A stretch of DNA of 64,000 nt, taken from NCBI GenBank assembly GCA_964519305.1, contig CAZFHY010000001.1:474132-538131 (forward strand). The letters run 5' to 3'. This DNA comes from Candidatus Undinarchaeota archaeon. GTDB lineage: Archaea > SpSt-1190 > JASMDC01. How positions within the stretch are numbered: the first letter of the stretch is position 1; each line of letters starts with the position of its first letter. The translations under genes and the position numbers were made by a program. Under the pieces are notes generated by a model. The model saw nothing but the letters and a program-made list of their open reading frames with translations, made no database searches and was not told where the DNA came from. Below are positions 1-59,928 of the stretch, in pieces.

Positions 1-865
1 TGGCTATGTTATGCCACTGGTCATCCCACATGAGGACATAGCTGCCAGCACCCGGGTCAGGGACGTCGATGAAGCGCTTGGTTGTGGGCACTACGTGCTC
101 GACGAACTCCATGAGGTGCGTATGGTTTAGGGCAAGGGTCACGTACCCTATTTTCTCATCGTTCTCGAACACCGGGGTCACCCACCGGATGATGCCGTCG
201 AACCGGTCCCCGTTCGGACGCTCGACCCCCCTGTACGCACGAGTCGAGTTAACATGTTTCCCTACAAGGTGAGACACATAGATCTCACCTTCATCAAGCT
301 CTTTTACATGCTCGAAGTAGTCCTCGACACCAAGATATGTGTTCAAGGGATTCATCACATCGCGCAGGGTCGACTGCTTACCGTCCTTATGCACATGTAT
401 CACTTCGCGGCCGGTGAGGTCCACGAAGGTCATCTCGGAGTATAGAGGCACATTCTGTCGCTGATGGCCTAGATGAACTAGATGTCGCTTCGATTGCAGG
501 AACGCATGATAGACCTCTGGTCTCCGATCCAGGAACCGGGCGACCAGGATGTCGCCATCCCGCTCGTATAGGAAGTTAGCGATGCTACGCGCGAGCTCTA
601 CAGCGCGCATCTCGAGGGCCTCGATGGCCTTCGCGTCAAGTGCCTCGACACTGTCGTTCACCGCCGCGCGACCCAGCTCCCTGGCAGCGGCCAGATCCCG
701 CTCTCCCATGTTGGTGGAGCCCTCCACCGCGTTCATAGCGATGCCCCGGGCGTTCCATACGGCAATGTAGCCGACCACGATCAGAGGGATCACTGAGAGC
801 ACTAGGAAGAGGAGGAATAGTTTGGAGGAGATAGGCAGGTCGTTCAGCCGATCGAATGCTCCCAC
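1..865 (-). CDS. Membrane sensor protein, N-terminal part (TM helix + extracytoplasmic Cache-like region); probable histidine kinase or other signalling protein, truncated by window edge
   Basis: Not in ORF track because it runs off the edge. Manual translation from GTG 865 (alternative ATG 889) is open to position 1: ..LPISSKLFLLFLVLSVIPLIVVGYIAV (TM)..ARSIANFLYERDGDI..PLYSEMTFVDLTGRE..GEIYVSHL..FDGIIRWVTPVFENDEKIGYVTLALNHTHLMEFVEH; pattern typical of Cache-domain sensors. Confidence 0.75.
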   Translation of the reverse strand, partial: MGAFDRLNDLPISSKLFLLFLVLSVIPLIVVGYIAVWNARGIAMNAVEGSTNMGERDLAAARELGRAAVNDSVEALDAKAIEALEMRAVELARSIANFLYERDGDILVARFLDRRPEVYHAFLQSKRHLVHLGHQRQNVPLYSEMTFVDLTGREVIHVHKDGKQSTLRDVMNPLNTYLGVEDYFEHVKELDEGEIYVSHLVGKHVNSTRAYRGVERPNGDRFDGIIRWVTPVFENDEKIGYVTLALNHTHLMEFVEHVVPTTKRFIDVPDPGAGSYVLMWDDQWHNIA

Positions 866-1094
866 GCACTTCGATATGAACACAAACATTTATCTGTCTG
901 TCCAAAGGACGGTCGCCCTTCACGAGCGTGTGAATGTTCCACGTCGTACCATGTTCTGTTCCATTTCTATTAATATCCGGAAGCACAGACTTCTCAATAA
1001 GCGAGACCACGGGCCACCACCCGTCCAACCGGCAAAAAGGAGCCAGGACGGGCGATAATCACAAGGGATGTACCGATCCAGTATCGACGACATT

Positions 1095-1207
1095 TGGCCA
1101 CGTGAGAGAAGAGGGTCACAAATTCGGCCCGGGGAGTTACCAACGCCACCTTGGACGCCCCGGGCCATCCCTTATCACCCCTCCTCTCAGGCCACCCCGT
1201 GGTAACT
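1095..1207 (-). other. Long imperfect hairpin / structured RNA element in intergenic region
   Basis: GGCCCGGGG (1126-1134) pairs perfectly with CCCCGGGCC (1158-1166); outer arms ~1103-1116/1177-1189 pair with G-U wobbles only on the minus strand; closing TGGCC/GGCCA. Confidence 0.45.
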
Positions 1208-1331
1208 GAAGGGAGTACTTACATTGCACCGGGAAAAGGAAAAACAACAAGTGGGGATGATACCTCCATGACGCCCCCCTCCATCTATCTGACGACCGCC
1301 CACTTCGCGGGACCATCCCATCGGTCGCGGC

Positions 1332-2522
1332 CTAGAGGACCGTCAGGCCCACCAGTGCCGCGGCCAGGAAGGCCAGCGTCACCGGACCTGCCACGGCTCT
1401 GGCGAATCCTCGCATATCCGTCCTGAAGTACTCAAGGGACACCACCAGGCACGGGTGGACGGGCGATACCATATAACCGAGGAAGACTGCCAGGTACATC
1501 ACGGCGAAGGGTATCGGCCGCATTGTCGTCGCGCCCACCATGGCCAGATGTATGGGGATTAGGATCGAGGCGGGGAGCTGGATGCGTCCTGTTGCCACAC
1601 CCAGTAAGAAACCCACTGGTACCAGGAGCGCCCATTGGGACGGTGCCACACCAGCTATGAACGACGGTGCCGGCGATGCAGTGAACATCTCCAGGAACAG
1701 GAACATCCCAAGGACTATGGCGCCGAAGCTCCAGGGACGCATCTTTCGGGCGACGTTCCTGAGGTCACGACCCTTGGGACCCGTGAGCGCATAGGCCAGG
1801 ACCAGGGCCACGATGACGCCCGCCAGCGCCCCGAGTGTCGGGAACGGGAGCAGCCCTGCCCTCTGCAAGAGCAGATCGACGGCCGGTGCCGAGAACAGGA
1901 CGACCATTGGCACGATACCTGTCCAGGGATCGCCCTCCCCCGGGCCATCGTTCGGCACCTGGCGAAGCAGGAGGACATAGCCGAGCAGGCCACAGAACAC
2001 GAACCCCGGCACTTGCCACGGGATGACCTCGTACACACCGAGACCGGCCATCTCGGCCGAAGCGATGAGCGACGGGCTAAGAGGATAGATCAGGAACATT
2101 AGGTGCCGATACCATACGTTGATGGCCACCTTCAGCTCACCGGGGACGTCCGCCCCGCGTCGTTCCACCAGCGGTGCCGAGAGCAATGCACCCCCGGGCA
2201 TGGGGAGCATCCCTACCATGGCCGGCGCGACCGCAAGGAATGGACGGCGGCCCATCCGAAGGCTCGCCACGAGCCGGTCCATGAGCCCGCCCTCCTCCAT
2301 CACACCACCGATGAGGGGGATGACCGCTACCGCAAGAGCGAGGGCTAGCACGGACGGATCTCCAAGGGTGGCCCCCGCGATCCATACGACCGTGGCGGCC
2401 GGAAGGGTCAGGAGCCCCAAGGTAAGCGCCCCTGCGGTGAGGGCTCCGGGGAGGCTCCACCGTGCCACGGCGAAGAGCACGCCGAATGACAGCGCCAAGC
2501 TCATGAGCACAGGGAGGGGCAT
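1332..2522 (-). CDS. DUF401-family integral membrane protein (putative transporter)
   Basis: 396 aa, ~11 hydrophobic segments, GMLPMPGGALLSAP and GYMVSPVHPCL motifs characteristic of DUF401. Confidence 0.8.
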   Translation of the reverse strand: MPLPVLMSLALSFGVLFAVARWSLPGALTAGALTLGLLTLPAATVVWIAGATLGDPSVLALALAVAVIPLIGGVMEEGGLMDRLVASLRMGRRPFLAVAPAMVGMLPMPGGALLSAPLVERRGADVPGELKVAINVWYRHLMFLIYPLSPSLIASAEMAGLGVYEVIPWQVPGFVFCGLLGYVLLLRQVPNDGPGEGDPWTGIVPMVVLFSAPAVDLLLQRAGLLPFPTLGALAGVIVALVLAYALTGPKGRDLRNVARKMRPWSFGAIVLGMFLFLEMFTASPAPSFIAGVAPSQWALLVPVGFLLGVATGRIQLPASILIPIHLAMVGATTMRPIPFAVMYLAVFLGYMVSPVHPCLVVSLEYFRTDMRGFARAVAGPVTLAFLAAALVGLTVL

Positions 2523-2579
2523 AGACGGCAGGAATGTGTGAGGGCGTTATAAGGATTGGGTTGGGGTGCGTGAACTACC

Positions 2580-3137
2580 TTACGCCACTGAGCGCATGGT
2601 GGCCACATGCGTCTGAGCACGGCCGCCCACCTCGTGGTACCAGTCGCTGTTCTCCATTTCGTTCGCCGCCTGCTCCCAGTTGCCTGTCGTGAGGGCTAGG
2701 TTGAGCTTCACGAACAAGGAGAACCGGTTGGGGCCGAGGTTGAACATCATGTCCACCACAACGTGCTTGACGTCGCGAGGCATGTTGTCCCAGGTCGCAG
2801 GGAAGGCCTGCTGACTTTGCGCAATAGCACGCTCAAGATCGCCCTCGAACAGCTTGTTGCACTTTTCCTTGGACACCGTCTGCCCCACCTTCAGGCCGTC
2901 GAGGGGGGTTACAAGATGGCCCCAGCACACGGTCGGGTTACCGTACTTGTCCGGGTACACGGTCTCTTCGTACCCCTCGTAGCCCTTGGTCATGGCGTCG
3001 AGCTGTTGCATATCGATCCCTTTTGTGTCCTTCGTTTCCTCAGTGTCATCCCGGGGGATCATGGCCTGCGAGTCACCGAAGCAGCCACTGACCATGACAA
3101 GGGCGAGAAGGAGTGCTAGATGAAGGACGCGTACCAT
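2580..3137 (-). CDS. T4-type lysozyme (GH24 muramidase) with lipoprotein signal peptide
   Basis: Start reassigned to ATG 3137 (MVRVLHLALLLALVMVSGC, lipobox VSGC), ~25 nt after BRE/TATA CGAAAGGTTTTTATCC. Catalytic E-x8-D-x5-T in YEGYEETVYPDKYGNPTVCWGHL; DMMFNLG and WEQAANEMENSDWYHEVGGRA match T4-lysozyme C-lobe. Confidence 0.88.
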   Translation of the reverse strand: MVRVLHLALLLALVMVSGCFGDSQAMIPRDDTEETKDTKGIDMQQLDAMTKGYEGYEETVYPDKYGNPTVCWGHLVTPLDGLKVGQTVSKEKCNKLFEGDLERAIAQSQQAFPATWDNMPRDVKHVVVDMMFNLGPNRFSLFVKLNLALTTGNWEQAANEMENSDWYHEVGGRAQTHVATMRSVA

Positions 3138-3160
3138 CGAATGCTCACTAAGTTTCAAGG

Positions 3161-3176
3161 GATAAAAACCTTTCGA
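3161..3176 (-). promoter_or_regulatory. BRE/TATA promoter of lysozyme gene
   Basis: Minus strand CGAAAGGTTTTTATCC, ~24 nt upstream of ATG 3137. Confidence 0.6.
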
Positions 3177-3183
3177 GCTCGTC

Positions 3184-5544
3184 CTACACCGCGTCAACTG
3201 ACACGACGTACGTGTCGTCATCGCGCGCAACTGCAGCACCCACACCGTTCACGGTCGCTCCCGTCACTTCGCTCTCTGAGTGGATGATGAACCTGTAGGT
3301 CTTCACCTCGGTGGCGTAGCCCTCTTGTATCCGGTCCACGGTTATCTCTGCAGTACCGGCGTCGTTGCGGTAGGCGAACTCGGTGAGGTTGTACTCGCCC
3401 TGCTTGAATCCGAAGGAGTGCCCGTCGTCCTCGTAGAACCGACCCTCGGCGCGGTCGTCAGCGTACACGTGGAGCTCCAGCTCCTCTGTAGGTTTCTCAT
3501 CAGTGTACTGCATGGCCGGCCCCATGGGCACGATCGAACCCTGCTTCACATACAGGGGCATGGTGTCCACGGGCGCGTCCTTGACAACGGTCTGGCGGCC
3601 ATCGTGGACCTCGTCGGTCCAGTAGTCGACCCATCTGCCCTCGGGGAGGTAGACATCGCGCTCCCGCGCCCCCTCCTTGGTCACCGGGGCCACCAGGAGG
3701 GCGTCCCCGTACATGAATTCGTTCGAGAGGTTGCGTACGTTCGGGTCGTTCTGGTGGTCGAGCACAAGCGGCCGCATCACGGGGATACCGGTCTCGGACG
3801 CCTGGCGGAAGGCGTCGTAGGTGTAGGGCATGAGCTGGTAGCGGAGGGTTAGATAGTCACGAGCTATGTCCTCGGTCTCCTGGCCGAAGGTCCATGGCTC
3901 CTGCTCACGGGTGTGACGGGAGGAGTGGGTACGGCAGAAGGGTGAGAAAGCACCGAACTGGACCCAGCGGGCATATAGCTCGGGAGTACAGTCAGCGCCG
4001 AACCCACCGATGTCGGTACCGGTGAACGCAATCCCGGACAGACCCATGTTCTCCATCATTGGCATGCCCATGTCCAGGTGCTCCCACTTGCTCCGGTTGT
4101 CGCCGGTCCACACGGCCGCGTATCGCTGGATACCGGAGAAGCCCGAGCGTGTGAGCACGAAAGGACGCTCGTCAGGATTGGCGCGCAGCAGGCCCTCGTA
4201 CGTGGCCATGTCCTCGTACATACCGTACACGTTATGTGCTTCGTTATGCTTGACGTCGCCCAGGTCGCCGTGATGCTCCATGTCGTCGGGCATGGTCTTG
4301 TAGGTGTCGATGATAGCGGGCTCGTTCATATCGTTCCAGATACCGGCGATACCGGCATCGGTGAGACGGCCGTACAGGTCTCCCCACCACTGTCTGACCT
4401 CCTCCCGGGTGAAGTCCGGGAAGGCGGCGGATTTGGGCCATACCGGAGCGTGGAACACGTCGCCGTTCTCGTCGGTGATAAAGTAGCCCTCCTTCATCCC
4501 TTCAGAGTACACGTCATAGTTATCCCCGTCGTCCACCCCAGGATCGATGATGGTGACTGTGCGAATCCCTTGGTCCTTCAGCTCCTTGATCATGGTCTCC
4601 GGATCAGGGAACCGCTGCGGGTCCCACGTGAACACGCGGTACTGGTCCATGTAGTCGATATCGAGCCAGATCGCGTCAAGTGGGATGTCCCGCTGACGGA
4701 ATCCGTCGGCGATCTCGCGAACCGTGGCCTCGGGGAAGTAGCTCCACTTGCACTGGTGGTTGCCCAATGACCATCTCGGAGGTAGCGGCATCCTGCCAGT
4801 GACCTCGGTGAAGCGCTCCACCACATGGCGCATTGCAGGTCCCTTGAGGAAATAGTAGTTGAGCTGGCCGCCGTCGGCCGTGACGCTCGCCTTATCAGCC
4901 CCGTTCTCTGCCATGGAGAACGTGGTGCGGAAGGTGTTGTCAAGGAACAGTCCGTAGGCAGTCTCGTCGTGCAGCCCTATGTAGAACGGGTGCGCCTGGT
5001 ACATCTCGTCGGTACCGCCAGCGTGGTCGCCATTAGCATCCCAGGTCCATTGCGTTAGGTGCTCGCCTCGCTTGTCCAGCGGCCCCGTCTTCTCGCCAAG
5101 CCCGTAGAACGACTCGTCCCCGGCGACCTCGCGCTCCATGCTTATCCGCCCCTCGTCATCCCAGGTCATCCCCTGACCGGCGTCGCGTGTGATGACGGTG
5201 TCGTCGGTATCGGCGAAGGTCACCCTGCCTGATGTCTTATCCACATAGACATGGAGCTCATCGGAGGTGAGGAGGTATGCATCAGACCGGTCCTCGACGG
5301 TCACGTCGGACCCCCCAAGGTCGCGTGTAAGGATAGCTGGGGAGTCTTTCCGTGCGGCGCCGTCCGTGTCCAGTCGGACGTTCACCACGTCATCGGCAAG
5401 GAACTCGATCCGGACATCGGCCTCCGATCCGTGGAACACGTAGGAGTCGCCGTCGATGTCGTATCCTCCGACGGTGCCCACTCCGTGGACGGTCGGACCG
5501 CTAGCATCCTCGCTCTGACTAGTCATCGTGGCATCCCCTGCCAT
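3184..5544 (-). CDS. GH31 alpha-glucosidase
   Basis: WLDIDYMD, nucleophile motif GIWNDMNEP, WTGDN, GTDIGGF, FCRTH; start moved to ATG 5544 (upstream ORF extension is junk-like and overlaps divergent gene). Confidence 0.93.
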   Translation of the reverse strand: MAGDATMTSQSEDASGPTVHGVGTVGGYDIDGDSYVFHGSEADVRIEFLADDVVNVRLDTDGAARKDSPAILTRDLGGSDVTVEDRSDAYLLTSDELHVYVDKTSGRVTFADTDDTVITRDAGQGMTWDDEGRISMEREVAGDESFYGLGEKTGPLDKRGEHLTQWTWDANGDHAGGTDEMYQAHPFYIGLHDETAYGLFLDNTFRTTFSMAENGADKASVTADGGQLNYYFLKGPAMRHVVERFTEVTGRMPLPPRWSLGNHQCKWSYFPEATVREIADGFRQRDIPLDAIWLDIDYMDQYRVFTWDPQRFPDPETMIKELKDQGIRTVTIIDPGVDDGDNYDVYSEGMKEGYFITDENGDVFHAPVWPKSAAFPDFTREEVRQWWGDLYGRLTDAGIAGIWNDMNEPAIIDTYKTMPDDMEHHGDLGDVKHNEAHNVYGMYEDMATYEGLLRANPDERPFVLTRSGFSGIQRYAAVWTGDNRSKWEHLDMGMPMMENMGLSGIAFTGTDIGGFGADCTPELYARWVQFGAFSPFCRTHSSRHTREQEPWTFGQETEDIARDYLTLRYQLMPYTYDAFRQASETGIPVMRPLVLDHQNDPNVRNLSNEFMYGDALLVAPVTKEGARERDVYLPEGRWVDYWTDEVHDGRQTVVKDAPVDTMPLYVKQGSIVPMGPAMQYTDEKPTEELELHVYADDRAEGRFYEDDGHSFGFKQGEYNLTEFAYRNDAGTAEITVDRIQEGYATEVKTYRFIIHSESEVTGATVNGVGAAVARDDDTYVVSVDAV

Positions 5545-5678
5545 TCGTGTCCCCTGATGACATACTACGCGCAAGAGGCTGCCTATAAAGGTTATGGTGA
5601 CGGTGAGCGGAGGACTGCCCAATGGATAGGTACTTATACCGGCCCGCAGGCCCCGCGGACACAGGTGTAGGTATCCCC

Positions 5679-6509
5679 ATGTACGACTCCATCGTGGACG
5701 GAGAAAGAGCGCGGGTAGACCTGGAGGAGCTGTGCTCCTACCGGACGAATCCTCAGCGCGCCGACCACGTCCGTGAGCGGTTCGGGGCACTGGGGCTTGA
5801 GACGGTCACCGAGGATCTTGAAGGTCACCGCGGGGTGTACGACCGCAACGTCATCGCTACCTACGAGGGTGATCCCGGCTCGGATCGGTACGTGATGGTT
5901 TGCGCTCACCACGATAAGGTGTACGGCTCTCCAGGGGCCAACGACAACGCATCGGGCACCGTGGCCCTCATGGAACTGGCCGACGCGTTCGTGCAGCACA
6001 ACGATAAGATCAATGTCGTATTCGCTTCCTTTGCTGCCGAGGAGTTCATGCTCGAAGGATCCTCACTGTACGTTGCAGGTCTGTCCGACGAGGAACGGGC
6101 ACGGTACGTGGGTGCCATCAACCTCGACTGCATCGGGGCTGGGGACGAACTTGTGGTCACAAGCAGGACCATGGGCCGACAACACGATGCTGAGCTCAAC
6201 ACCACTATCCTGGAGACCGCTGACGAGCTGGGTATCCCCTGCGTGGAGAAGGACTTCAAGAAAGGTCTCTCGGACCACCTCAGCCTGATGGACGGGGGTA
6301 TCCCGGCGACCTACATCGCGCGCATGGACCGGCCGGGATGGGGCAACCTCCTCCAGCGATGGCTCGACGGCCACACCCTTCCCAACGACATCCATACGAA
6401 GGGCGACCGGCCCGAAGGTATCAACGATGGTGAGATGTCCGAGGCCATCGACGTGACATACCATTCCCTGAAGGACATCTACAGCAAGGCCGTGGATCAG
6501 GTCACGTGA
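5679..6509 (+). CDS. M28-family zinc metallo-aminopeptidase
   Basis: CAHHD, GANDNASG, FAAEE, INLDC, SDH, IHTKGD zinc/catalytic motifs; no evident signal peptide. Confidence 0.88.
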   Translation: MYDSIVDGERARVDLEELCSYRTNPQRADHVRERFGALGLETVTEDLEGHRGVYDRNVIATYEGDPGSDRYVMVCAHHDKVYGSPGANDNASGTVALMELADAFVQHNDKINVVFASFAAEEFMLEGSSLYVAGLSDEERARYVGAINLDCIGAGDELVVTSRTMGRQHDAELNTTILETADELGIPCVEKDFKKGLSDHLSLMDGGIPATYIARMDRPGWGNLLQRWLDGHTLPNDIHTKGDRPEGINDGEMSEAIDVTYHSLKDIYSKAVDQVT

Positions 6510-6518
6510 TATGCCGCT

Positions 6519-8459
6519 TCAGGACTCGGCCTCGAATCCTTCTGGTGCGAGCCGCTGCAACCTTGCACGTGCCTCGATGACGAACCGCTCCACCTCGTCC
6601 TGTGCGAGATGGTCGTTGGCGAACTCGAAAGCGCCCGGGACCACCCACGGCAGGTGCCAGTAGAGCTCACGGAACAGCCCCCCGTTCCAGATGGAGAAGG
6701 CAGGATCCTTCACCGGGAGCAGCTTGTGGTCCCCCCGCTGTACCGCGTCCCAGAGTGGGCTTCCCGGGAAGGCGATGAGGGAGAACAGGTTGGGCTTCAC
6801 GTACGGAGCATGGGTGGTGACCATCTCTTCGAGGAACGACACCGTGGCCTGCATGTCAGCGCGGTCCTCGTGCGGTAAGGCCACGATGCCACCGATGCTC
6901 ATCCCGATACCCTTCGACGCAGCATGGGCGATGAGCCGACGGGCCCGCTCAACGTACTTGACAGGATCACCGGTCTTTCCCATGAACTTCAGACTGGCCG
7001 GGACCACGCTCTCCAGACCCAGATAGATGCTCTCAAGACCGACTTCGCTCATCCTGTCGATGAGATCGGTGGTCAGGGTGTCCACGCGGGACGAGCACGT
7101 CCACACCAGTTCCGGCCTTTTCTCGCCAAGGAGCTCGCAGAACCGTCCGACCCAGCGGGAATCTGCGGTGAAAAGATTATCAGAGAACTCTATCCGTGTC
7201 ACACCCCACCGTTCGTGTAGGTCAATAAGCTCCCGGACAACGTACTCAGGCGAGTTCTGTCGCATGGCCGGGTACATCTTCTCGTTGGAGCAGTAGGTAC
7301 ATGAGAACGGACAGCCACGGCTGGTGCTCACAGTCACAGCACGACCTGGCCGTGCTCCCACGAACCGCTCGTAGGAGGGGAACGGTAACGAGTCAAGGTC
7401 CTTGATGGGTGCTGCCGGTGGCGTGTGGATGACCTCGGACCCGCTGCGGTAGGACAACCCTTGCACGTCGTCGAAGGGCTGCCCCTTTACTAGTCGATCT
7501 ACGAGAGCAGGGAAGGTCGCCTCGCCCTCGCCACGCACGAGCACATCGGCCTCCGGTAGGATAGAGAGGAGCTCGGTGGGATTCTCAGTGGCAGGATAAC
7601 CGCCCATCACAACGGGAACGTCGGGATGGCGCGGTCTGAAGGCCCGGACCAGTTCAAGGGCGAACGGGAGATTGGAGGTCCAGGCACCAACACCGAGGAT
7701 GTCGGGCCGGGTCCGCTCGATCACCGAAAGGATGTGGGACAAGTGCCGCCGGGCTTCTGCGAGTGGTACGGTGATGACGTTGTCGAGGTCCAGCACGATG
7801 TTGGCATCAACGCAGGATACCTCTATGGACTGATCTGCACGCTCGAGCGCTGCGGCCAGGTAAGCGAGATTGAGCGAGGGTCGCGGCGGAGTGCCGTCCA
7901 CGGTGGGGGGCCATACGAGGGTGATCCGCTTGCCTGTGGCCTGTCGGACCGGCCCGATCGAGCGGGGGATTGAGCGGCAGCCCCAGTGACAGGTCCCACG
8001 CGCCCAATGACGACAGGCGCGACACTCGTCAGGCACAGGTGCAATATCGCGATAGAGACGGGCATAATCGGCCACCGCTGCTTCGCTCGGGAAAGAGGCG
8101 CGCGGAGGGCCACACCACCGATCGGTGACGCGGCACAGTACCACACACCCTTCATCCAACGTCCAGGCGTCCTCGCACTCATCACAGGACGTGGGCACGT
8201 CCATCCCCCACGCAGGATCCCCCGCGCCGAGAAGGCAAGGAGGTAAAGGGGTGCGCACCCTGACCGATATCCCTCCCTCGCGTAGCATCGTGAGAGCGTC
8301 CCGTAACCGCCGCCCCATGGATGGAGTGCGGTCCTCCGGAGGGAGCTCGAGGGAGAGTTGTACGGGGTCACTTGCACCCGTCAGGTCCGCTATAGCATCC
8401 ACTAGCTCAGCGATGGTTCCCCGGAACACACGACCGTTCTCAGATGGTGCGTCGCTCAT
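6519..8459 (-). CDS. B12-binding radical SAM protein with N-terminal Cys-rich (SPASM-like) extension
   Basis: B12 domain (PSLNLAYLAA, VVMGG, RGEGE), SRGCPFSCTYC, FSDNLF, GLES; N-terminal PLPPC..CDEC..C..C..ECRACRHWARGTCHWGC; GAGGGGG upstream of ATG 8459. Confidence 0.88.
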   Translation of the reverse strand: MSDAPSENGRVFRGTIAELVDAIADLTGASDPVQLSLELPPEDRTPSMGRRLRDALTMLREGGISVRVRTPLPPCLLGAGDPAWGMDVPTSCDECEDAWTLDEGCVVLCRVTDRWCGPPRASFPSEAAVADYARLYRDIAPVPDECRACRHWARGTCHWGCRSIPRSIGPVRQATGKRITLVWPPTVDGTPPRPSLNLAYLAAALERADQSIEVSCVDANIVLDLDNVITVPLAEARRHLSHILSVIERTRPDILGVGAWTSNLPFALELVRAFRPRHPDVPVVMGGYPATENPTELLSILPEADVLVRGEGEATFPALVDRLVKGQPFDDVQGLSYRSGSEVIHTPPAAPIKDLDSLPFPSYERFVGARPGRAVTVSTSRGCPFSCTYCSNEKMYPAMRQNSPEYVVRELIDLHERWGVTRIEFSDNLFTADSRWVGRFCELLGEKRPELVWTCSSRVDTLTTDLIDRMSEVGLESIYLGLESVVPASLKFMGKTGDPVKYVERARRLIAHAASKGIGMSIGGIVALPHEDRADMQATVSFLEEMVTTHAPYVKPNLFSLIAFPGSPLWDAVQRGDHKLLPVKDPAFSIWNGGLFRELYWHLPWVVPGAFEFANDHLAQDEVERFVIEARARLQRLAPEGFEAES

Positions 8460-14735: not shown

Positions 14736-15980
14736 TCACTCCTTGGCCACGTTACCGCGTCCCAGGCGTTCGTGTGCTGTTACTAGATGGCCGGCGGCCA
14801 GTGCGCCCAGAAGGGAGAGTTCCCCGGCAAGGGATGCTGCTGCGAATATCTCAGCTAGTTTCTTGGCGTTGGCACCCGGGTCATTCGTGTTCGGACCTGA
14901 GCAGCCAATGATGTTCATCGCTTCGAGCTGGGTGGGTAGTCCGGTCCCGCCACCGATGGTAGCGACCTCGAGCGATGGAAGGGTGATGCTGGCATAGAGG
15001 TCCCCGTCATCCGTAACCTCTGCCGTGACCATCGACATGGACGACTCCACTACCTGGGCAGGATCCTGTCCCGTTGCTATGAAGAGGGCCGCGATGATGT
15101 TCGCCACATGCGCATTGAAGCCGTAGGCAGCGGCTTGAGCGCCACCTATGTACAGCTTCCGGTAGGCAACATCCGATAGGGCCTCAGGTGTGCATTTGAA
15201 CACCTTCTGGACTATCTCCCTAGGAAAGATCACATCGGCCTGGACGGTCTTGCCCCTTCCCTCGATCCAGTTCATTGCCGAAGGCTTCTTATCGACGCAC
15301 AGGTTCCCCGAGGTCGCGACGAGCACGGCGAAAGGATTATGCTCGCTGATGAAGTCACAGGCAGCACGACTTCCTTTCGAGATCATGTTCATGCCCATGG
15401 CATCGGCAGGATCGGCAAGGAACCTGATGAAAACGTTCCGCCCTACGATCCAGATCCTGAGATCCCGCAGCCATACGAAGGGCTCGTCACCCTTGAAGGC
15501 CGCCGCCACCTCTTCGAAATGCTCCTCGACCCATAGTTTGAGTTTGACGGCATGGTGGGTGTCCGGTACCTGCATCACAGGGGCGCGCGTCATTAGGGAA
15601 CGGAGCACACGTACCGTAGCGCCACCGGACTTGGAGATGGCCGAGCAGCCACGCGCCACCGATGCTAGCAGCGCGCCCTCGGTCGTTGCCATGGGAAGGT
15701 AGAACTCACCGTTGGCGTATTCACCATTGACCTTGATCGGGCCAGCTATACCGGTGGGAATCTGTGTCCATCCGACAGGATTCTCAACGTTCCTTGCCCG
15801 TGTTATGCTCATCTCGATCGCGCTGGAACCCATGTTCTTGAGGGATACTCCCGTGGCCTGTTCGATGGCGATGCGGCGGATCTCGGTGGCACGGTCGATG
15901 TCGCCGTCCACAAGGCCTTCGACCTGGTGGAGTCTGACCTCGCCCGCTGCGACCTTCTTGATGAGCTCAGAATCGTCCAT
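14736..15980 (-). CDS. hmgA: HMG-CoA reductase, class I
   Basis: ENPVG, PMATTEGAL, DAMGMNM, SGNLCVDKK, ATGQDPA, GGGT, C-terminal catalytic His (AHERLGR). Confidence 0.96.
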   Translation of the reverse strand: MDDSELIKKVAAGEVRLHQVEGLVDGDIDRATEIRRIAIEQATGVSLKNMGSSAIEMSITRARNVENPVGWTQIPTGIAGPIKVNGEYANGEFYLPMATTEGALLASVARGCSAISKSGGATVRVLRSLMTRAPVMQVPDTHHAVKLKLWVEEHFEEVAAAFKGDEPFVWLRDLRIWIVGRNVFIRFLADPADAMGMNMISKGSRAACDFISEHNPFAVLVATSGNLCVDKKPSAMNWIEGRGKTVQADVIFPREIVQKVFKCTPEALSDVAYRKLYIGGAQAAAYGFNAHVANIIAALFIATGQDPAQVVESSMSMVTAEVTDDGDLYASITLPSLEVATIGGGTGLPTQLEAMNIIGCSGPNTNDPGANAKKLAEIFAAASLAGELSLLGALAAGHLVTAHERLGRGNVAKE

Positions 15981-19226: not shown

Positions 19227-21125
19227 CTAGCCCTTCAGAGCTGTCTGGAGCCGTTGACGGATCGCTTGAGCGACTAGCTTGCCATCGACCTTCCCTCGGA
19301 CCTCCTTCATGGCAAGGCCCATGAGCGGGGCGAACGCGCGCTCCCCCTTGGCCTCAATAATACCTGCCTTCTCGCTGAAGATACGGTCGACGATCGTATC
19401 AAGCTCGCCTCCGGAGACGCTCTCCACTTCGATGGGCTCGCCCTTTGCCAAGCAGACAAGAGCCTGCGGTATCGCCTCCTTCGCGAGCTTCCCTTCGGCG
19501 AGCAAATTAAAGAGCTCCATGAAGCCCTCCTCATCGATCTCGTCCGTATCAATCCCCTCCTTACGCCGGACCTCGACCACGATGGTCGTGAGGATCGACG
19601 CGGCCACGGTGGGATTGATATCAAAACGCTCCACGGCCCTGTCGAAGAGGAACATGTGCCGCGAGCGGATGAGCTGCCCGGCGAGGTCGTCAGAAAGCCC
19701 CATCCCCAGATAGCGCTTCTTTCGCTGGATCGGAGTCTCAGGAAGGTCGTCCTCCGCTTCCTGTTGCATCCGTTCTGTAACCGAAATGGGTGGTAGATCC
19801 GTCTCAGGGTACATCCGCTTTGCCCCGGGTAGGGGACGAGCATAGGACGTAGTGGCATCATCGTGGTTGGGGGCCCGGGTCTCCTCGGGGATGCCCACCA
19901 GAAGGTAACGGGCACGCTCCACGACCGCGTCCACCGCCTTGCGGGCAATCCGATCGGGTCCTGCTGCAATGAGCACTAGGTCGCCATCGCTTGCAGATAG
20001 CGAGGTACGAAGTGCGGTGAACTCCTTGACGAGATCGTACTTCTTTAGATCCTCGTCGGAATGGATTATTCCGCCAACACCTGCTGCAACAGCGTAATCG
20101 GCCAGCTCCCGGCCGAGTGTGCGTCCTGTGCACACCTCCTTCTTCAACCTACCATCGAATCCGGGTAGTCGGGTCGCCACGACACGTCCACCGTCCTTGA
20201 TGAGCTTTGCCAGGAACTTGGTCTTCACGTTCGCGAACGTTTCGGTGACGTCCAGAACGTCGCCGGGTATCTTGTCTAGCCCGGCGGCCTTCAGTTCATC
20301 CTTGATCTTGAGCAGGGATTCCTGTCGCGTGGTCTCGTTCTCCACGAGCTTGGAGAGGGAACGCAGGTCCTGCCATCCTTTCACCTCGATACGCGCCCCT
20401 CCGAAGATGGATATGTTCACGTCCTGCCGGATGGTCCCGATGCCGCGTTTCATGGCACCGGTGGCCCGGAGCATGAGCCCTATCGTCTCTGCGACCTCCC
20501 GTGCGTGTTCGGGATCAACTATGTCAGGGCACGTACCCAGTTCCACGAGTGGGATGGAGAGACGCGATAGGCTGAAGTGCCTCGTTCGACCCTTGGACCG
20601 CTTGTTATCGATCTTGGCCGCCTCCTCCTCGATAAAGAGGGACTCGATACCGACGGGTGTCTTGGAGGTCTCGAGCACGGATCCCTCGGTCTGGACACCT
20701 ATCTGACATGTGCGCTGGAATCCCGATGTGTTGCTCCCATCGACGACGCTCTTTCGCATGACGAAAAGCTCGTCAGGGACCTTTAGACCGAACATGCGAG
20801 CTACGACCAGCCCGACATGGAGCGCACGTGGATTCATCTGATGCGGCGGTTCCTCGTCAAGCTCAACTAGACAGGCCTCCCCCTCGTAAAGATGGTAGTG
20901 GAACTCCCTGTCGCGGAACATCTCGTACTGTGCAGCGGGGTCCACCTCGCCGAGCTCACCGGCGACGGCGCGCAGCTTGCGTACCACTGCACGGGTCTCA
21001 GCTCCCTCTGTGAGAGCGCTCGAGCACGGGCAGAAGAGCTTGCCCGTCTCTAGTTCCTGGTGGAACTCCAGCCCGCACTTGAATCCGAGTTTCTTGTACC
21101 TGTCATGCGTTTTCTCGGCCATCAT
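19227..21125 (-). CDS. gatE: Glu-tRNA(Gln) amidotransferase subunit E
   Basis: KCGLEFHQ, GKLFC, DEEPPH, MRKSVVDGSNTSGFQRT, GIGTIRQDVNISI, RPLPGAKRMYPETD. Confidence 0.97.
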   Translation of the reverse strand: MMAEKTHDRYKKLGFKCGLEFHQELETGKLFCPCSSALTEGAETRAVVRKLRAVAGELGEVDPAAQYEMFRDREFHYHLYEGEACLVELDEEPPHQMNPRALHVGLVVARMFGLKVPDELFVMRKSVVDGSNTSGFQRTCQIGVQTEGSVLETSKTPVGIESLFIEEEAAKIDNKRSKGRTRHFSLSRLSIPLVELGTCPDIVDPEHAREVAETIGLMLRATGAMKRGIGTIRQDVNISIFGGARIEVKGWQDLRSLSKLVENETTRQESLLKIKDELKAAGLDKIPGDVLDVTETFANVKTKFLAKLIKDGGRVVATRLPGFDGRLKKEVCTGRTLGRELADYAVAAGVGGIIHSDEDLKKYDLVKEFTALRTSLSASDGDLVLIAAGPDRIARKAVDAVVERARYLLVGIPEETRAPNHDDATTSYARPLPGAKRMYPETDLPPISVTERMQQEAEDDLPETPIQRKKRYLGMGLSDDLAGQLIRSRHMFLFDRAVERFDINPTVAASILTTIVVEVRRKEGIDTDEIDEEGFMELFNLLAEGKLAKEAIPQALVCLAKGEPIEVESVSGGELDTIVDRIFSEKAGIIEAKGERAFAPLMGLAMKEVRGKVDGKLVAQAIRQRLQTALKG

Positions 21126-21134
21126 GTCCACCTC

Positions 21135-22484
21135 CTAATACCTGAACGACGCCGGGTCCGATCCCGGCGACACCTCCCCAGCGATGTTCTCGAGCATCAT
21201 CTTTTTCGCCTCAGCGACATCGGACGTGTGCCCGAGCACCCACGCCAGCTTGATGTAAGCGGTCTCAGGTAACATGTCCTCGAGGAATATCACTCCCCGC
21301 TCGAGCATAAGACGGCCGTTCTCGTATACATAGGGATCGAGGCGTCCGTACATGCATTGGGGAGCAAAGCATACGATCATGCCCTCATCGCGGGCACGCT
21401 CGAGGGCCGGGAGCCAGGACTTCTCCTTGTCCAGTGTCTGTGTGGGGACATGGCCCAGACCGGTCGCTTCCACGACAACTCCCCTGAAGCCCTTGTCGAT
21501 GTAATGGTGTAGGATCCCAGGATCCTGATTCGGACATACCTTGAGCAGGGCTACTTTTTCCTCCATGGCGGTGTCCGCCGTGACAGTCACAGCATCATCG
21601 CGCTTGACGTACGCCTTATCGAGCACCTCGATACGGCCGTCGGGCCAGGTCTTGGCGATCGGCGGGGCGTTGACCGGTCTGAAGGCATCCCGTCGGGATG
21701 TATGGAGCTTGCGCACCTTGGTCCCCCGTGTCACCAGGCAGTACGAGTCGTCGCTCTCGCCATGCATGACCAGGGTGACGCCCGCTATGTCCGACGTAGC
21801 AGCGATCCGTGATCCGCAGATGAGGTTGATTGGGCCATCGAAGGAGCCGCGGTCAGCTGAGCGCTGAGCGCCCACTAGGCAAACGGGTTTCCTAAGGTCC
21901 TTGAGCATGAAGGAGAGCGCTGCTGCGGTGTAGTGGAGGGTATCGGTACCATGCGTGAGCACGGCACCGAGTGCGCCATCGTTGAGTTCGCTCGCAACGG
22001 CCTCGGCCAGCTGCTGGTACTCGCCGAAGGTCATGTCCTCGCTGGCGATGGTGAAGGGTGAGAGCACGTTCCTGAACGTTACCACATCGGCGAGCTCGGG
22101 CACAGAATAGAACACCTCCTCCGGCTTCATGAGCATGTGCACAGCGCCTGTGCGATAGGAAACACGGGAGGCGATCGTACCTCCTGTAGCGATTAGAGAG
22201 ATGGCAGGGAGGTCGTCCCGGGTCGGGAAGTCGCGGGTCGGGAACTGCTCCAGTTCCTGTCGATGGTCCATACGCTCGATGGTCGTGTTTGTTTCGGGCT
22301 TCAGCCCGATATTGTAGCCGTTATCGAGCTTCAGGGTGAGAGTATTCGTGTCACCGAGCTCGATGCGTGGAAGAAGGAGGCCCTCCACCACGACCGGTCC
22401 ACTGGTGATCCGGACACGGTCCCCGGGACGGACGGAGGCCGCGTCGAGCAGCCCCTTGGTCGTCTTGGAATAGGACATGGTCAC
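21135..22484 (-). CDS. gatD: Glu-tRNA(Gln) amidotransferase subunit D
   Basis: KLDNGYNIG, TGGTIAS, HGTDT, GAQRSADR, KLHTSRRDAF, EDMLPETAYIKL; adjacent to gatE. Confidence 0.97.
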   Translation of the reverse strand: MTMSYSKTTKGLLDAASVRPGDRVRITSGPVVVEGLLLPRIELGDTNTLTLKLDNGYNIGLKPETNTTIERMDHRQELEQFPTRDFPTRDDLPAISLIATGGTIASRVSYRTGAVHMLMKPEEVFYSVPELADVVTFRNVLSPFTIASEDMTFGEYQQLAEAVASELNDGALGAVLTHGTDTLHYTAAALSFMLKDLRKPVCLVGAQRSADRGSFDGPINLICGSRIAATSDIAGVTLVMHGESDDSYCLVTRGTKVRKLHTSRRDAFRPVNAPPIAKTWPDGRIEVLDKAYVKRDDAVTVTADTAMEEKVALLKVCPNQDPGILHHYIDKGFRGVVVEATGLGHVPTQTLDKEKSWLPALERARDEGMIVCFAPQCMYGRLDPYVYENGRLMLERGVIFLEDMLPETAYIKLAWVLGHTSDVAEAKKMMLENIAGEVSPGSDPASFRY

Positions 22485-22638
22485 GAAGGGCGGGACCAGA
22501 AATATAAAACTAGTGGGGACGGGGACCGCGGGGCCCGATTGTTCGTATCCTATAACAATACCTTAATAAGGTATCCACGCCTTCGCCTGATAAAGAGCTA
22601 TAAATCGTACGCTCTCAACGGTTTTGGAGGCCATTTTC

Positions 22639-25600
22639 ATGAAGGCGAAGGCATATACGACCCTTTCAATCATTCTAGCGCTGTTCATCGCGCTCGGTAC
22701 AGCCGCGGGATGCGACTATTCGGCTGGTGAGAACTGCCAGACCAAACCAAACATCTGTCCCTGCGATCTTCCCGAGTTCCCAAACTGCGATCCTTCGCAC
22801 GCCGACGCCGATGAGCGTGGATGCTGGGGCGAAGGCGGTAGCGGTGGCGCTACCGACTGTGGCCAGCACGTCACACAGGCAGCCTGCGACGTCACAGGTA
22901 TGTGCAAGTGGTGCGAGGGCGACTCGGCACCGAACAGCTGTTTCCCCATGGAATACACTTGCCAAGGGAGCACCGGCGGTTACTGTGGCGACAGCAATTG
23001 TGCAGGCACCGAGGGCGAGGACTGCAACACCTGTTCACAGGACTGTGGCTGCCCTTCTGGTGACATCTGCAAGAGCGACGGGCACTGTTCGCCGGACACA
23101 GCTACCTCTGGCTACTGCGGCGACTACTCATGCAATCCTGGCGAGGATTACACTACCTGCTGCAAGGACTGCAAGTGCCCTGACGGCACGCTCTGCGATA
23201 CCAACTCGAACACATGCGTCACCGACACCAGCAGCAGTAGTAATGACGACAGTGGCTACGTCTGCTGCCAGCCCTCGGAAAGTGGGGCTGATGCATGCCG
23301 CGTGGATCTCGGGGGCGCCTGCCCGAACGGATTCTCGCACCTCGATAACGAATGGGTGGATCCGTACAACCCCGCCAACTGCATCTACCCGGGACCGGGC
23401 GCGACGAACCCGCCCTTCTGTCCGGCGGACGGCAGCGGGACGAGCTCTGGGGACTACATCCCCCCCCGGCCCCCGTCCTACGACACCTGCGGCAACTGCC
23501 ACTGGGAGTGCATGTTCGAGGACAATAAGCCCGATTACGAGTGCGACAACCAGTGCGGGTCCGTGTGCGACACGGGGACCACATACCAGCCCGACCCGTC
23601 CTCAGAGCCTTCCGACCAGTGTCAGAACTGCCTCGACAAGTGCATGTACGAGATGCACCGCTCGAGCACGGAGTGCAAGGGGTTCTGCGAGTACGACTGC
23701 GGTGGTGCTGACGAGCCCACACCCACACCTTATACTTCAACGACCGATACCGGAGACCAGTGCGACAACTGCATGGACAAGTGCCGGTACGAGATGGGCC
23801 GTTCGACCTCTGAGTGCGAGGGCTTCTGCGAGTACGACTGCGGCGGAGGGGACACGGGTACAGATGACTTCGACACGTCCACTCCTTGTGGACAGTGCGA
23901 GTACCAGTGCGAGGTAGTGGAAAGGAAACCGGTCTACGAGTGCGATAAGATATGTGCACCCAAGTGCTCGGATTCGCCTCTCTTTGATAACGAATGCGAC
24001 AAGTGCTTCTACCAGTGCGTAGAGGTAGAGGGGAACTCGGAGTACAGATGCAAGGACAGGTGTCGGCCGGCCTGTGAGGGCGGCACGGAGCAGCCATCGG
24101 GCAACGAGTGCGATAATTGCTTGTACAAGTGCGTAGAGGTGGAGGGGAACCTGGAGTACAGGTGCAAGGACAGGTGCCAGCCGGTCTGTGGGAGCATTCC
24201 GGAACAGCATGATGATTGCGGTATCTGCACCCACGAGTGCGAGGTCGTCGAACGTAGGCCCACCTACGAGTGCAAGTCGCTCTGTCGTGACGTCTGCGAT
24301 GTGCCATTGGACACGGGTGATGCCCCCGACGTTAGAATCATCCCGACGACGGTCCGCCTGTACGAGCCCATGAACATTTGCAGAGGGAAGCTGAGCCTCG
24401 ACGACGTCGACATGACCCGTTCCGAGGCTTTCTTCACAGCCGTGCGACCTGATGGTGCCAAGGAAGGATTCAACATCAAGTTCGACGAGTTGAGATACTA
24501 CCCGTTCTTCATTCACTTCGGTACATTTGCCGTCCATGCGGACGAGAGCTCGAGCCTTGAGCGCGATGCCGCCAACATCAACATCCACAAGACCCCCGAG
24601 TGCGGGCCTTTCCCACCGCCGGACGACATCGGGGGTTCTGATGACGGCGGATGGCAGCCTTCGGGGGACGATATCCCCCCCAAGCCCCCGATCTACGACC
24701 GCTGCGGGACGTGCAAATGGAAGTGTGAGTTCGAGCAGAACCGTCCCGAGTACGAGTGCCGGGACGAGTGCGGCATTGTGTGCGGGGAGACCGAGGATCC
24801 CTGGGGAACGGACGAGTCCGATGAGTTCGACCTGTCAGAACCACCGTCCTACGCCTTCCGGGACCGACCTATGGAAGGCGGCTTTGTCGGTCGCCCCCTC
24901 CTGCTCAAGCTCAACGAGCCCGTCGAGGTGTGCGGGATGCAGTTCGAGGCGCTCGCCATCAATCCGGAGGAGCGCGTTCTGATGATAAAGGCAGTGTGGC
25001 CCGATGGTAAGGCCGAGGAGGTCGGTGTCGATATAGACCAGGTGCTCGCGGGGACCATGCACGGCCTCGTCAAGCACTTCGACACGGTGTCGCTCCACGT
25101 CCCCGAGCCTGATAACGAGGAGGACAAACCGCCAATCGCCCGGAACTGGGCCGTGCTCGCCGCGATGATACGGACGGACTGTGCGCCGTTCTCCCTCTCG
25201 GACCTCATGCGAGGACCTGGCGAGGATCCGACCGAAGGGCCAGGTGACGGGGATGCCATCGTCGCTGACATCGAGATACTGGACGACGGTCGGTTCATCA
25301 CCAAGCTCGAGCGAGGTCAATGGACTCTCGTGTGCAGCCGAAGGGTGCGGTACCTGGACCTCAAGGACGGCGGCAAGGTGGCCGTCGTCGAGGCGGACAC
25401 AGGGATCCGGATGCGCGAGCTACTCTTCAGAGCGGACACGTTCCACGATGAGGACGGCCGCGAGGTCACGGATGAACAACGCGTTGGCCTCAACATGGTA
25501 AAAGCGCTCAAGGACGGATTCCATGACGGCAACGTCCTCGCCATCCTCGTGAAGCCAGATCTCAGGTGTTCGGAGGAGCTCAAACAGCAGACGGGCGAGC

Positions 25601-52308: not shown

Positions 52309-53748
52309 TTATCCGGAGGACGCCTGAGCCCGGTTCAGTTCCTCGGCAGAGATCATGTCCCGGTTCTCGAAGAGCGTCACTGCATCGTACTTTCCGTAGT
52401 GGAGGACAGGTGCCCGTAACACGTATCCATCCATCACGTACTTCCGGAAAGCAGGATCGTTCCCAATACCGGAAAAATGGAGTTCGTTTTCCCCGTCAGG
52501 TTGCGGTGTGCGTTTGGCCACGAGCACGATGTAACGTGTACGATGCACTGAGACCGCCTCGATAAGGCGCTCGGGAGCCAGTACACCACTAGTGACACGG
52601 ACGTAGTTGGAATCGAGTTCATTACCACTTATCTCAAGACCTGACAAGAACGCGAGCGTTGGAGCAGCAATAGCATGCCCGAACACACGTTCGTCTGGAT
52701 TCGAATGCGTGCTGACGTATTGCGAGTACTTCAAGAGGGCAAGTCCAAAGGGGTGACCGGTGCGTGCCGCCGAATAATGGGGCGCGTTCCAGAAAAAGGC
52801 CGCGACGAGCACGGCCACGATTATGACCCCAGCACTCTTTCCCCAGGAGCTCCACCGATCCAGTGTCCCCCCTGCGAACACGGAAAGAGGGACGAGCGGG
52901 AATATCAAGTACTGGAGGAATATACGCTTCTGGATGAGGATTAGAAAGGTGACGAGGGTAAAGAAGGCAGGGAAGGCCAGTGGTCGGTCCCGCCCACGCT
53001 CGATAAGAGAAGGAATGGCCGCTATGACGATCAGTGCTTCTGTAATAAGGAAGTTCTTGAGCACGCGAGCGCGGACTTCAAGATGGAAGGGCTCCTTCTG
53101 CATGTGGAAGAGCACAATCTGCTCAACCATCTGGTGAGGGCCGGCGATATACGCGAGCGCGCACCCGACAGGGACCGTAACTACCAGGAAAGCAAGAAGG
53201 AACTTTTTAACAGCTCCCCTCCGCCCCCACAGGTCGAAGAGGATGACAGGAAGGGTCACAACTGTGAAGAGCTTGGTGAGCACAGCGATCCCGCAAAGGA
53301 CCCCAGCAGGAATCGGTCGCCGGGCATAATGTCGTTCTAGGGCCGCCATCGCGAACAACAGAGCAAGGACGTTCCCATCGGTCTGTCCAGACATCAAGAA
53401 GCCTTGTGAACTGAGGAGCAGGACGCAGGAGATCAGCGCAGCACGGTCATTATAGTATCGGCGAGCTAGACGAAAGCAGACAGCTAGGAGCGACACGTTC
53501 ACGACCATAGCGATTGCTGTCCCGGCCATATACGTCGTCCCCAGGAACATGAAGACGGACGTGATGATGACGAGCATGACGGGCGGGTGTGCGAAGAAGA
53601 AATCCCTGTACGGTACACTTCCCCGGAGAGTGTCCCGGGCCATGAGGAAGTAGATGTTCTCATCGCTCGGCCGGGGGATGGTCGTAGGAGCATTGATCCA
53701 AGCACAGATGAGGAGCAGGATGATGAGGACCTTGGTAATGTTGTTCAT
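52309..53748 (-). CDS. GT-C (ArnT/PMT-like) glycosyltransferase, paralog 1
   Basis: DENIYFLM, VPYRDFFFAHPP, QTDGN, LTKLF, ~10 TMs, C-terminal soluble domain; start moved to MNNITK by alignment with paralogs. Confidence 0.85.
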   Translation of the reverse strand: MNNITKVLIILLLICAWINAPTTIPRPSDENIYFLMARDTLRGSVPYRDFFFAHPPVMLVIITSVFMFLGTTYMAGTAIAMVVNVSLLAVCFRLARRYYNDRAALISCVLLLSSQGFLMSGQTDGNVLALLFAMAALERHYARRPIPAGVLCGIAVLTKLFTVVTLPVILFDLWGRRGAVKKFLLAFLVVTVPVGCALAYIAGPHQMVEQIVLFHMQKEPFHLEVRARVLKNFLITEALIVIAAIPSLIERGRDRPLAFPAFFTLVTFLILIQKRIFLQYLIFPLVPLSVFAGGTLDRWSSWGKSAGVIIVAVLVAAFFWNAPHYSAARTGHPFGLALLKYSQYVSTHSNPDERVFGHAIAAPTLAFLSGLEISGNELDSNYVRVTSGVLAPERLIEAVSVHRTRYIVLVAKRTPQPDGENELHFSGIGNDPAFRKYVMDGYVLRAPVLHYGKYDAVTLFENRDMISAEELNRAQASSG

Positions 53749-55445: not shown

Positions 55446-55504
55446 CTCCGTATCAAGGGATGTGGAGGGGAGTTAAATCTTTTTGGGGGTCGGGTAGGTC
55501 CGGT

Positions 55505-56911: not shown

Positions 56912-56962
56912 GTCCGTGGTGAAGGGTGGCGCTGGTGAGTTAAATCTTTATTGCGCCCCGGC

Positions 56963-58378: not shown

Positions 58379-58440
58379 GTCCGTTGGTAGTGTTGTTGGG
58401 CTGATTCAATAAATGTTTGCCGGAGTGTACCTAATGCCCC

Positions 58441-59868: not shown

Positions 59869-59928
59869 GTCCGCTCCTTCCCTCCACGGACCAGAGTAAT
59901 ATATAATTACCCGCATTGGCCCTTCTCG

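Follow-up and report, generated by a model that had tools for sequence, protein, structure and literature searches.

A T4-type lysozyme with a predicted lipoprotein anchor in the chromosome of an Undinarchaeota archaeon

Archaea were long thought to ignore bacteria, and recent work has revealed that some of them make enzymes that cut the bacterial cell wall. Here we analyze a gene for a T4-type lysozyme of family GH24 with a predicted lipid anchor, which lies on the minus strand of a 64,000-nucleotide stretch of DNA from a Candidatus Undinarchaeota archaeon (C1:474132-538131; this whole stretch is called the window hereafter), and which an earlier note on the same DNA had described as a domesticated T4-type lysozyme. 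Its family is represented by T4 lysozyme (T4L, the product of gene e), with which the window protein shares the Pfam family, the predicted two-lobe fold and the positions of the catalytic Glu, Asp and Thr residues. However, T4L is cytoplasmic and released by a holin, whereas the window protein has a signal peptide, a lipobox and a linker; moreover, it is acidic, carries a Cys in place of Gly28 of T4L, is encoded in an archaeal chromosome without a lysis cassette, and is ~22-25% identical to T4L. A lipobox anchor near the membrane is also found in the bacterial Mlt lipoproteins, which are lytic transglycosylases that cut glycan strands beside the membrane and remodel the producer's own wall; these belong to other families and work on their own wall, while the cell studied here has no such wall.

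Archaeal peptidoglycan hydrolases that kill bacteria have been published (PMC12352652). The GH25 muramidase of Aciduliprofundum boonei (Metcalf et al. 2014, PMC4241558, as cited in PMC12352652) is an archaeal lysozyme with demonstrated killing. Like it, the window protein appears to be a bacterial- or phage-derived lysozyme fixed in a murein-less archaeon and is read as antibacterial, but it belongs to GH24 and has a predicted lipobox anchor. Strock et al. 2025 described 210 modular hydrolases in 175 archaeal genomes, defined by the presence of one or more catalytic domains together with one or more domains that bind the cell wall (PMC12352652). Like these hydrolases and Woldo and Danwoldo of Halogranum salarium (PMC12352652), the window protein is archaeal, apparently horizontally acquired, predicted to be exported and probably aimed at bacteria. 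However, according to the same text, the Strock-type enzymes are M23 or glucosaminidase proteins with Tat signals and act from the supernatant (PMC12352652), whereas the window protein is a GH24 enzyme with a Sec-type lipobox signal; being a single domain, PF00959 only, it lies outside their modular definition. Another survey counted 256 archaeal endolysin homologues in 2327 genomes, among which muramidase domains are sparse (PMC12596118), and a predatory use has been proposed for the large lytic transglycosylases found in Woesearchaeota (PMC9723730). Archaeal peptidoglycan hydrolases are thus already described, and what the window gene adds is GH24 combined with a predicted lipid anchor. On balance, we consider it rather probable that the gene encodes a working GH24 muramidase, long resident in its genome, that serves as a membrane-proximal accessory of an arsenal directed against bacterial walls, be it for killing, for feeding or for both.

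The lysozyme gene and its predicted product

The earlier note had marked positions 2580-3176, of which 2580-3137 (C1:476711-477268) is the coding part and 3138-3176 is promoter. The open reading frame (ORF) on the minus strand begins with an ATG at 3137, ends with a TAA stop at 2580-2582, and encodes a 185-aa precursor. The features of the locus are as follows, in window coordinates.

2580-3137, minus strand: coding sequence of the lysozyme precursor, 185 aa (translation; PF00959, E-value 2.5e-15; phrog_7, 1.6e-20)
3162-3175, minus strand: predicted promoter, with the TATA-like TTTTTAT at 3162-3168 and the CGAAAGG at 3169-3175 that resembles a B recognition element (BRE) (sequence and genome-wide peak)
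3081-3137, minus strand: predicted signal peptide and lipobox, codons 1-19, MVRVLHLALLLALVMVSGC, in which cleavage and lipidation are predicted at Cys19 (sequence)
3018-3080, minus strand: acidic linker, residues 20-40, FGDSQAMIPRDDTEETKDTKG, modeled with low confidence, leading from the anchor Cys to the fold (per-residue confidence score pLDDT of AlphaFold2)
2583-3017, minus strand: catalytic domain with the predicted GH24/T4-lysozyme fold, residues 41-185 (HMMER, AlphaFold2, Foldseek)
2976-2978, 2949-2951 and 2931-2933, minus strand: catalytic codons of E54, D63 and T69, respectively (codons checked by eye)

The assignment to GH24 is supported by several comparisons. Residues 51-173 match the Pfam family PF00959 (Phage_lysozyme) with an E-value of 2.5e-15 and 57.3 bits, the cut-off being 22.3, and the domain matches the PHROG endolysin family phrog_7 (E-value 1.6e-20); a six-frame search of the whole genome with PF00959 returned the window lysozyme as its single match. 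The best matches among PDB sequences are T4L chains (HMMER, best E-value 6e-10), and in the HMMER alignments E11, D20 and T26 of T4L fall on E54, D63 and T69, so the E-x8-D-x5-T catalytic spacing that the earlier note had read from the sequence is indeed present. In an alignment of eight sequences E54 and T69 are invariant, and the D63 column holds either Asp or Cys. The AlphaFold2 model (50 homologues) has a mean pLDDT of 90.0; its block values are 55-74 over the first 40 residues and reach at least 95 beyond them. An overlay on T4L had been proposed in the earlier note, and the top 50 Foldseek matches to this predicted model are all T4L entries or T4L fusions; free-standing T4L entries give target-normalized template modeling (TM) scores of 0.72-0.77, with a root-mean-square deviation of 2.6-3.2 Å at ~22-25% identity. 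A two-lobe T4 lysozyme fold is hence predicted for the window protein.

A full-length orthologue, P0002, is identical to the window protein at 168 of 184 residues (91%) and keeps the signal peptide, the catalytic triad and both Cys residues of the domain, Cys71 (codon 2925-2927) and Cys93 (codon 2859-2861). Cys93 lies on the helix after Cys71 and is common to several homologues; a Cys71-Cys93 disulfide is possible.

Start codon, promoter and predicted lipid anchor

The public gene calls P0152 and P0153 (171 aa) begin at Met15 and thus have no signal peptide, positions 3095-3137 being omitted, which conceals the export signal and hence the biology. We favor the 185-aa form with the upstream ATG, based on the spacing of the TATA-like element, the conservation of residues 1-27 in P0002, and a textbook n-h-c signal. 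Counted from the ATG at 3137, TTTTTAT occupies -31 to -25 and CGAAAGG -38 to -32. Across the 279 ORFs of the genome whose ATG start is unambiguous, AT-rich octamers are most frequent at -31 to -28 (~17% versus a background of ~3%), so the canonical archaeal promoter that the earlier note had described stands at the distance from the ATG which this genome prefers. Such a sharp peak is the signature of leaderless transcripts, and the spacing in front of the lysozyme suggests a leaderless or near-leaderless mRNA whose 5' end would lie at this ATG. The element fits into an intergenic space of 46 nt upstream of the gene, beyond which lies the stop codon of a GH31 gene (3184-3186). Between the window protein and P0002, no difference falls within residues 1-27, and 16 lie among the 157 aligned residues that follow.

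These observations also bear on the idea that the protein is a cytoplasmic form starting at Met15, or that it acts on another substrate such as a chitin-like polymer or the sugars of the cell's own envelope. The Met15 start of P0152 and P0153 speaks for the former, and the latter could appeal to the lack of a wall-binding domain that would fix specificity. However, a start at Met15 would place the TATA-like element ~70 nt away, off the -28 peak of the genome, and residues 1-14, which form part of a canonical signal, are fully conserved in P0002. As for the substrate, the other hydrolase domains of the genome belong to peptidoglycan-specific families, and to our knowledge GH24 enzymes are known only as lysozymes. 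We find either version hardly credible.

The lipobox noted earlier is found at residues 13-19 (LVMVSGC), where VSGC fits the consensus [LVI][ASTVI][GAS]C with Cys19 at its end. The signal is laid out as an n-region MVR, a Leu-rich h-region VLHLALLLALVM and then VSGC, and as there is no twin-arginine motif it is taken to be of the Sec type. Genome-wide, a PROSITE-like lipobox filter retained 91 of 2876 ORFs, compared with 31 of 1747 in an internal control, and Cys was the commonest +1 residue at strict signal ends (18/87 genome-wide, 1/14 in the internal control, with a Cys background of 2.1%). The ten lipobox proteins that we scanned comprise two ABC solute-binding proteins, an FKBP foldase, a Rieske protein and six proteins without a family. 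These patterns indicate that the lipobox is in real use in this genome, on classic lipoprotein classes. The bacterial Lgt family (PF01790) has no match in the genome, as expected for archaea; the lysozyme would likely be lipidated through the archaeal AliA/AliB pathway (PMC12462473; AliA is arCOG02177). Between the anchor and the fold, the linker has 21 residues, which we estimate to span ~7 nm at full stretch, and such a short linker argues, on the model, for action near the membrane.

Outside the protein's own cluster, none of 152 other sequences has a lipobox, which makes the anchor look like an innovation of this lineage. It is very unlikely in our judgment that the lysozyme is instead cleaved and shed into the medium as a soluble enzyme, with a lipobox that provides no lasting anchor. 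The ~12 small lysozymes of the sister branch in our protein tree (next section) do carry plain signal peptides, and published archaeal peptidoglycan hydrolases act from the supernatant (PMC12352652). Against release stand the identity of the lipobox and of residues 1-27 in P0002, the use of the lipobox on solute-binding proteins in the same genome, and the apparently lineage-specific nature of the anchor. Another lipobox-type signal (…ALGTAAGC) is found in the window on a 1717-aa ORF at 22624-27777 on the plus strand, which has no Pfam match at an E-value of at most 1e-4.

Residence, rarity and history of the gene

The lysozyme gene is a resident of an archaeal chromosome, neither a prophage gene nor an assembly artefact. 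The source genome (G000) has 3.63 Mb in 42 contigs and is 99.83% complete and 4.29% contaminated; its 16S rRNA scores 1508 bits with the archaeal model and 1157 with the bacterial one. Within the 605-kb contig, runs of N occur only at 186032 and 550218, leaving the lysozyme in a 364-kb gap-free stretch, and the same window encodes GatD/GatE (19227-22484) and HMG-CoA reductase (14736-15980). Positions 1-8000 are reproduced without a difference by Logan contigs of two studies, one of 27.6 kb from run X1 and one of 53.4 kb from run X5, though either run may be the source sample of the assembly. A third study contributes a 679-bp Logan contig that matches 2449-3131 at ~87% identity, again with DUF401 next to the lysozyme. 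The gene has a GC content of 0.59, equal to the genome median, and among 949 ORFs of comparable size its codon score ranks at the 85th percentile. Its neighbors are DUF401, GH31, an M28 peptidase, radical-SAM proteins, phosphate transport genes and sensor kinases. As the earlier note had stated for holin, capsid and integrase, we found no phage, holin, capsid or integrase family among 35 neighboring proteins (18 kb upstream and ~58 kb downstream), nine of the downstream ones having been scanned with NCBIfam only and several ORFs having no family match at all, and no tRNA gene lies in the window or in the preceding 18 kb. There is thus no lysis cassette of the phage or prophage kind, since holin or spanin, structural and integrase neighbors are lacking and the flanks are syntenic in G001, another genome of the same genus. 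Recent phage contamination was ruled out by codon usage, by this synteny and by the independent contigs. The chimeric or mis-assembled contig against which the earlier note had cautioned can be dismissed, given the gap-free stretch, the identical Logan contigs and the host-like codons, and its description of a domesticated lysozyme in an archaeon is borne out by an intact gene with an archaeal promoter on a contig that bears GatD/GatE.

GH24 is rare in archaea. Among the 17 species genomes of the phylum in our collection, PF00959 was found only in G000 itself; the genus of G000 has genomes of 3.6-3.8 Mb, compared with 0.6-1.2 Mb in the other three families of the phylum, a marked difference in size for members of a single class. 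In five other archaeal phyla the family was found in 1/133, 0/2, 0/5, 0/401 and 0/40 genomes, so that outside G000 it occurs in one of 597 genomes, and that sole match comes from another phylum, from an 85%-complete metagenome-assembled genome (MAG) in which its contig measures 2.9 kb. A GH24 gene on L016, a contig of a Nitrosopumilus-labelled MAG, was rejected as probably belonging to a mis-binned phage, as it is accompanied by a phage primase/helicase, a DNA methyltransferase and a second endolysin. On the other hand, Woesearchaeota MAGs contain GH24-like genes with an N-terminal membrane anchor at L023:5599-6309 (236 aa) and L018:694-1476 (260 aa), both adjoining a class I tRNA synthetase, and in L023 also an archaea-specific threonyl-tRNA synthetase editing domain. 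These two genes seem to represent a further GH24 lineage in archaea, apparently of separate origin. Together with the Woesearchaeota transglycosylases (PMC9723730), they resemble the window gene in being archaeal chromosomal genes whose products cut wall glycans and carry signals for the membrane or for export. However, the anchor of the two GH24 proteins is of the transmembrane type, where the window protein has a lipobox, an insertion precedes their catalytic Thr, their alignment to the window protein extends over residues 86-184 only, at 34-40% identity, and they do not group with it in the tree. By these sequence comparisons, the window GH24 is rare but not unique among archaea: of the earlier suggestion of a singular archaeal case, the rarity holds (1/597), and the uniqueness does not, in view of the two Woesearchaeota genes and the published archaeal peptidoglycan hydrolases. 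Our literature search found no publication on an archaeal GH24 enzyme; it did not cover the supplements of PMC12352652, which possibly list such proteins.

The history of the gene can be followed in G001, which is syntenic with the window on both sides of the lysozyme at 82-88% nucleotide identity but lacks positions ~2614-3188. What is left there corresponds to the following feature.

2580-2613, minus strand: 3' end of the lysozyme gene, surviving as a remnant in G001 (synteny alignment)

This remnant, which directly adjoins the stop codon of GH31, preserves the ten terminal codons and the stop in their original frame (AHVPTMRSMT-stop in G001, THVATMRSVA-stop in the window). Most simply, the lysozyme was present in the common ancestor and was deleted in G001, and the in-frame remnant suggests that the gene is older than the split between G000 and G001. 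The M28 peptidase gene at 5622-6509 on the plus strand is also gone from this site in G001 (5651-6407 missing, with a 3' remnant left), making two single-gene deletions within 3.5 kb, and a 66%-identical DNA match to the peptidase is found elsewhere in G001. Neighboring proteins of G000 and G001 are 85-93% identical, a range into which the identity of P0002 falls.

Beyond P0002, relatives are remote. A HMMER scan gave 5088 matches, with identities of 27-48% among the 150 listed; only P0002 reached an E-value of at most 1e-30, the next best being 1.1e-25, and a word-based protein search returned P0002 as its sole match. The 1217 matches in phage records are all below 60% identity, the best at 36.5-39.6%, and the named phage proteins closest to the window protein are virion or tail lysozymes; the best identities are 38-40% in species genomes and 32-42% in IMG/VR viral contigs, and JGI metagenome contigs gave one locus at 32%. 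In a FastTree phylogeny of 235 rows, the window protein (P0001) and P0002 form a long branch within a group of 27 unnamed proteins from metagenomes that has 95% support and mixes long proteins (592-1155 aa) with small lysozymes bearing plain signal peptides; the nearer forks have 38-46% support. Since the closest homologue outside its own 90% cluster is only ~40% identical, no donor can be named from these comparisons.

An old transferred gene might of course be a functionless passenger that is drifting towards loss, as its deletion in G001, the Cys71 at a near-invariant Gly and the failure to find the family in the other 16 genomes of the phylum could suggest. However, the gene retains its reading frame, its catalytic triad, a promoter at the right distance and a codon usage like that of the host, and the substitutions that separate the gene from its full-length, 91%-identical orthologue spare the signal peptide and the catalytic residues. 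We hold a passenger to be highly improbable.

Target and possible role

Mur_ligase_M has no match in the 99.8%-complete genome, which suggests that neither murein nor a polymer of the pseudomurein type is produced here through Mur ligases. The enzyme as an autolysin of its own wall is thereby ruled out, in line with the earlier view that the substrate is not the cell's own wall. Wall-hydrolase domains occur elsewhere in the genome (M23 five times, NlpC/P60 twice and SLT once), mostly in giant secreted proteins. Four such giants (1883-2353 aa, with 92-140 Cys) have N-terminal signal sequences; two combine M23 with NlpC/P60, one of them with a weak glucosaminidase match, a third combines M23 with SLT, and the fourth has M23 alone. 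Their positions in G000, outside the window, are as follows.

C10:38217-44264: giant hydrolase (L102)
C10:99461-105112: giant hydrolase (L103)
C12:99634-106695: giant hydrolase (in L104)
C19:1070-7414: giant hydrolase (in L105)

G001 has four giant frames matching those of G000. In the phylum, M23 is found in 6 of the 17 genomes, including G001, and in a sister family of small genomes (0.9-1.2 Mb) it is present in all four, some in giant frames. Taken together, the lack of Mur ligases and the companion M23, NlpC/P60 and SLT proteins strongly support bacteria as the target, with the lysozyme as a putative accessory piece of a conserved peptidoglycan-directed enzyme set. Regarding the earlier description of a surface-tethered enzyme aimed at bacteria, the bacterial peptidoglycan target is therefore upheld by these findings, and for the tether it is the lipobox signal that stands.

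The membrane-proximal accessory that we favor would have arisen when an ancestor of the genus took up a lysozyme gene from a phage or bacterium long ago, which has since become an ordinary chromosomal gene. Its TATA/BRE elements stand at the position observed above, and it would be transcribed from this promoter of its own as a leaderless mRNA; the product would be exported by Sec through its N-terminal signal peptide, and cleaved and lipid-modified at Cys19 by an AliA/AliB-type pathway. The 21-residue acidic linker would then hold the lysozyme on the outer face of the membrane, where, judging from its fold and catalytic residues, it would hydrolyze MurNAc-GlcNAc bonds of bacterial peptidoglycan, and at the archaeal surface the arsenal would serve to breach or degrade bacterial cells or the debris of their walls. 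In this case the gene would add another family, GH24, and another deployment, a predicted lipid anchor without a wall-binding module, to the antibacterial enzymes of archaea; a modular-hydrolase definition would overlook such proteins, so that the archaeal anti-bacterial repertoire is probably undercounted. The giant hydrolases common to the relatives point to a lineage whose lifestyle involves bacterial walls.

Several observations weigh against this interpretation. The loss in G001 indicates that the lysozyme is dispensable. No second domain, including any for wall binding, was detected, PF00959 being the sole Pfam family at an E-value of at most 0.01. The mature protein is acidic (isoelectric point 4.85), whereas the T4 enzyme is basic, and Cys71 occupies a position at which at least 90% of the 50 aligned homologues have a Gly, the equivalent of Gly28 of T4L. 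None of the listed runs that contain the stretch is recorded as RNA. A membrane-held muramidase cannot reach an intact Gram-negative wall unaided. MurQ has only sub-threshold SIS matches (best 29 bits against a cut-off of 302 bits), and GH3/NagZ, Amidase_2 and Amidase_3 have no match in the genome. With the genes for muropeptide catabolism not found, a feeding role would be without its expected downstream steps.

The two narrower roles between which the favored reading does not choose can each be considered by itself. If the tether served to let the enzyme lyse live bacteria only on cell contact, in predation or epibiosis, one would understand why a lipobox is present instead of a plain secretory signal, and why a secreted wall-hydrolase arsenal is conserved in the lineage, including relatives with small genomes that may be symbionts. 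However, a linker of only 21 residues gives a short reach, an outer membrane shields the wall in most marine bacteria, and the sister species G001 lost the lysozyme yet kept the giant hydrolases; we regard such a contact weapon as unlikely. A point in favor of the weapon is that large lytic transglycosylases in DPANN archaea have prompted proposals of predation (PMC9723730). The step that the earlier note had taken from tethering to contact-dependent antagonism does not follow, as a tether of this length fits membrane-near work on wall fragments equally well.

The alternative of a nutrient scavenger, which trims dissolved peptidoglycan fragments or dead sacculi for uptake and kills nothing, agrees with the membrane-proximal location, with the solute-binding lipoproteins and with the abundance of glycoside hydrolases nearby and in the window (GH31 and two GH15-like proteins). 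Furthermore, the run labels point to a marine setting, and wall debris is abundant in such settings. The sub-threshold MurQ and the missing GH3/NagZ, Amidase_2 and Amidase_3 stand against it, so scavenging of necromass, another role suggested earlier, is weakened, and taken alone it seems quite unlikely to us. A bolder extension of the favored reading makes the organism an archaeal bacterivore, whose giant M23/NlpC-P60/SLT proteins breach the prey envelope while the lipid-anchored GH24 enzyme finishes the glycan strands at the contact zone; we see this as conceivable but doubtful. If true, a 3.6-Mb marine archaeon and the relatives that share its giant proteins would live partly by attacking bacteria.

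Elsewhere in the window, five consecutive ORFs of 468-551 aa lie on the same (minus) strand at 52309-60096; they have no NCBIfam match and may form a paralogous array.

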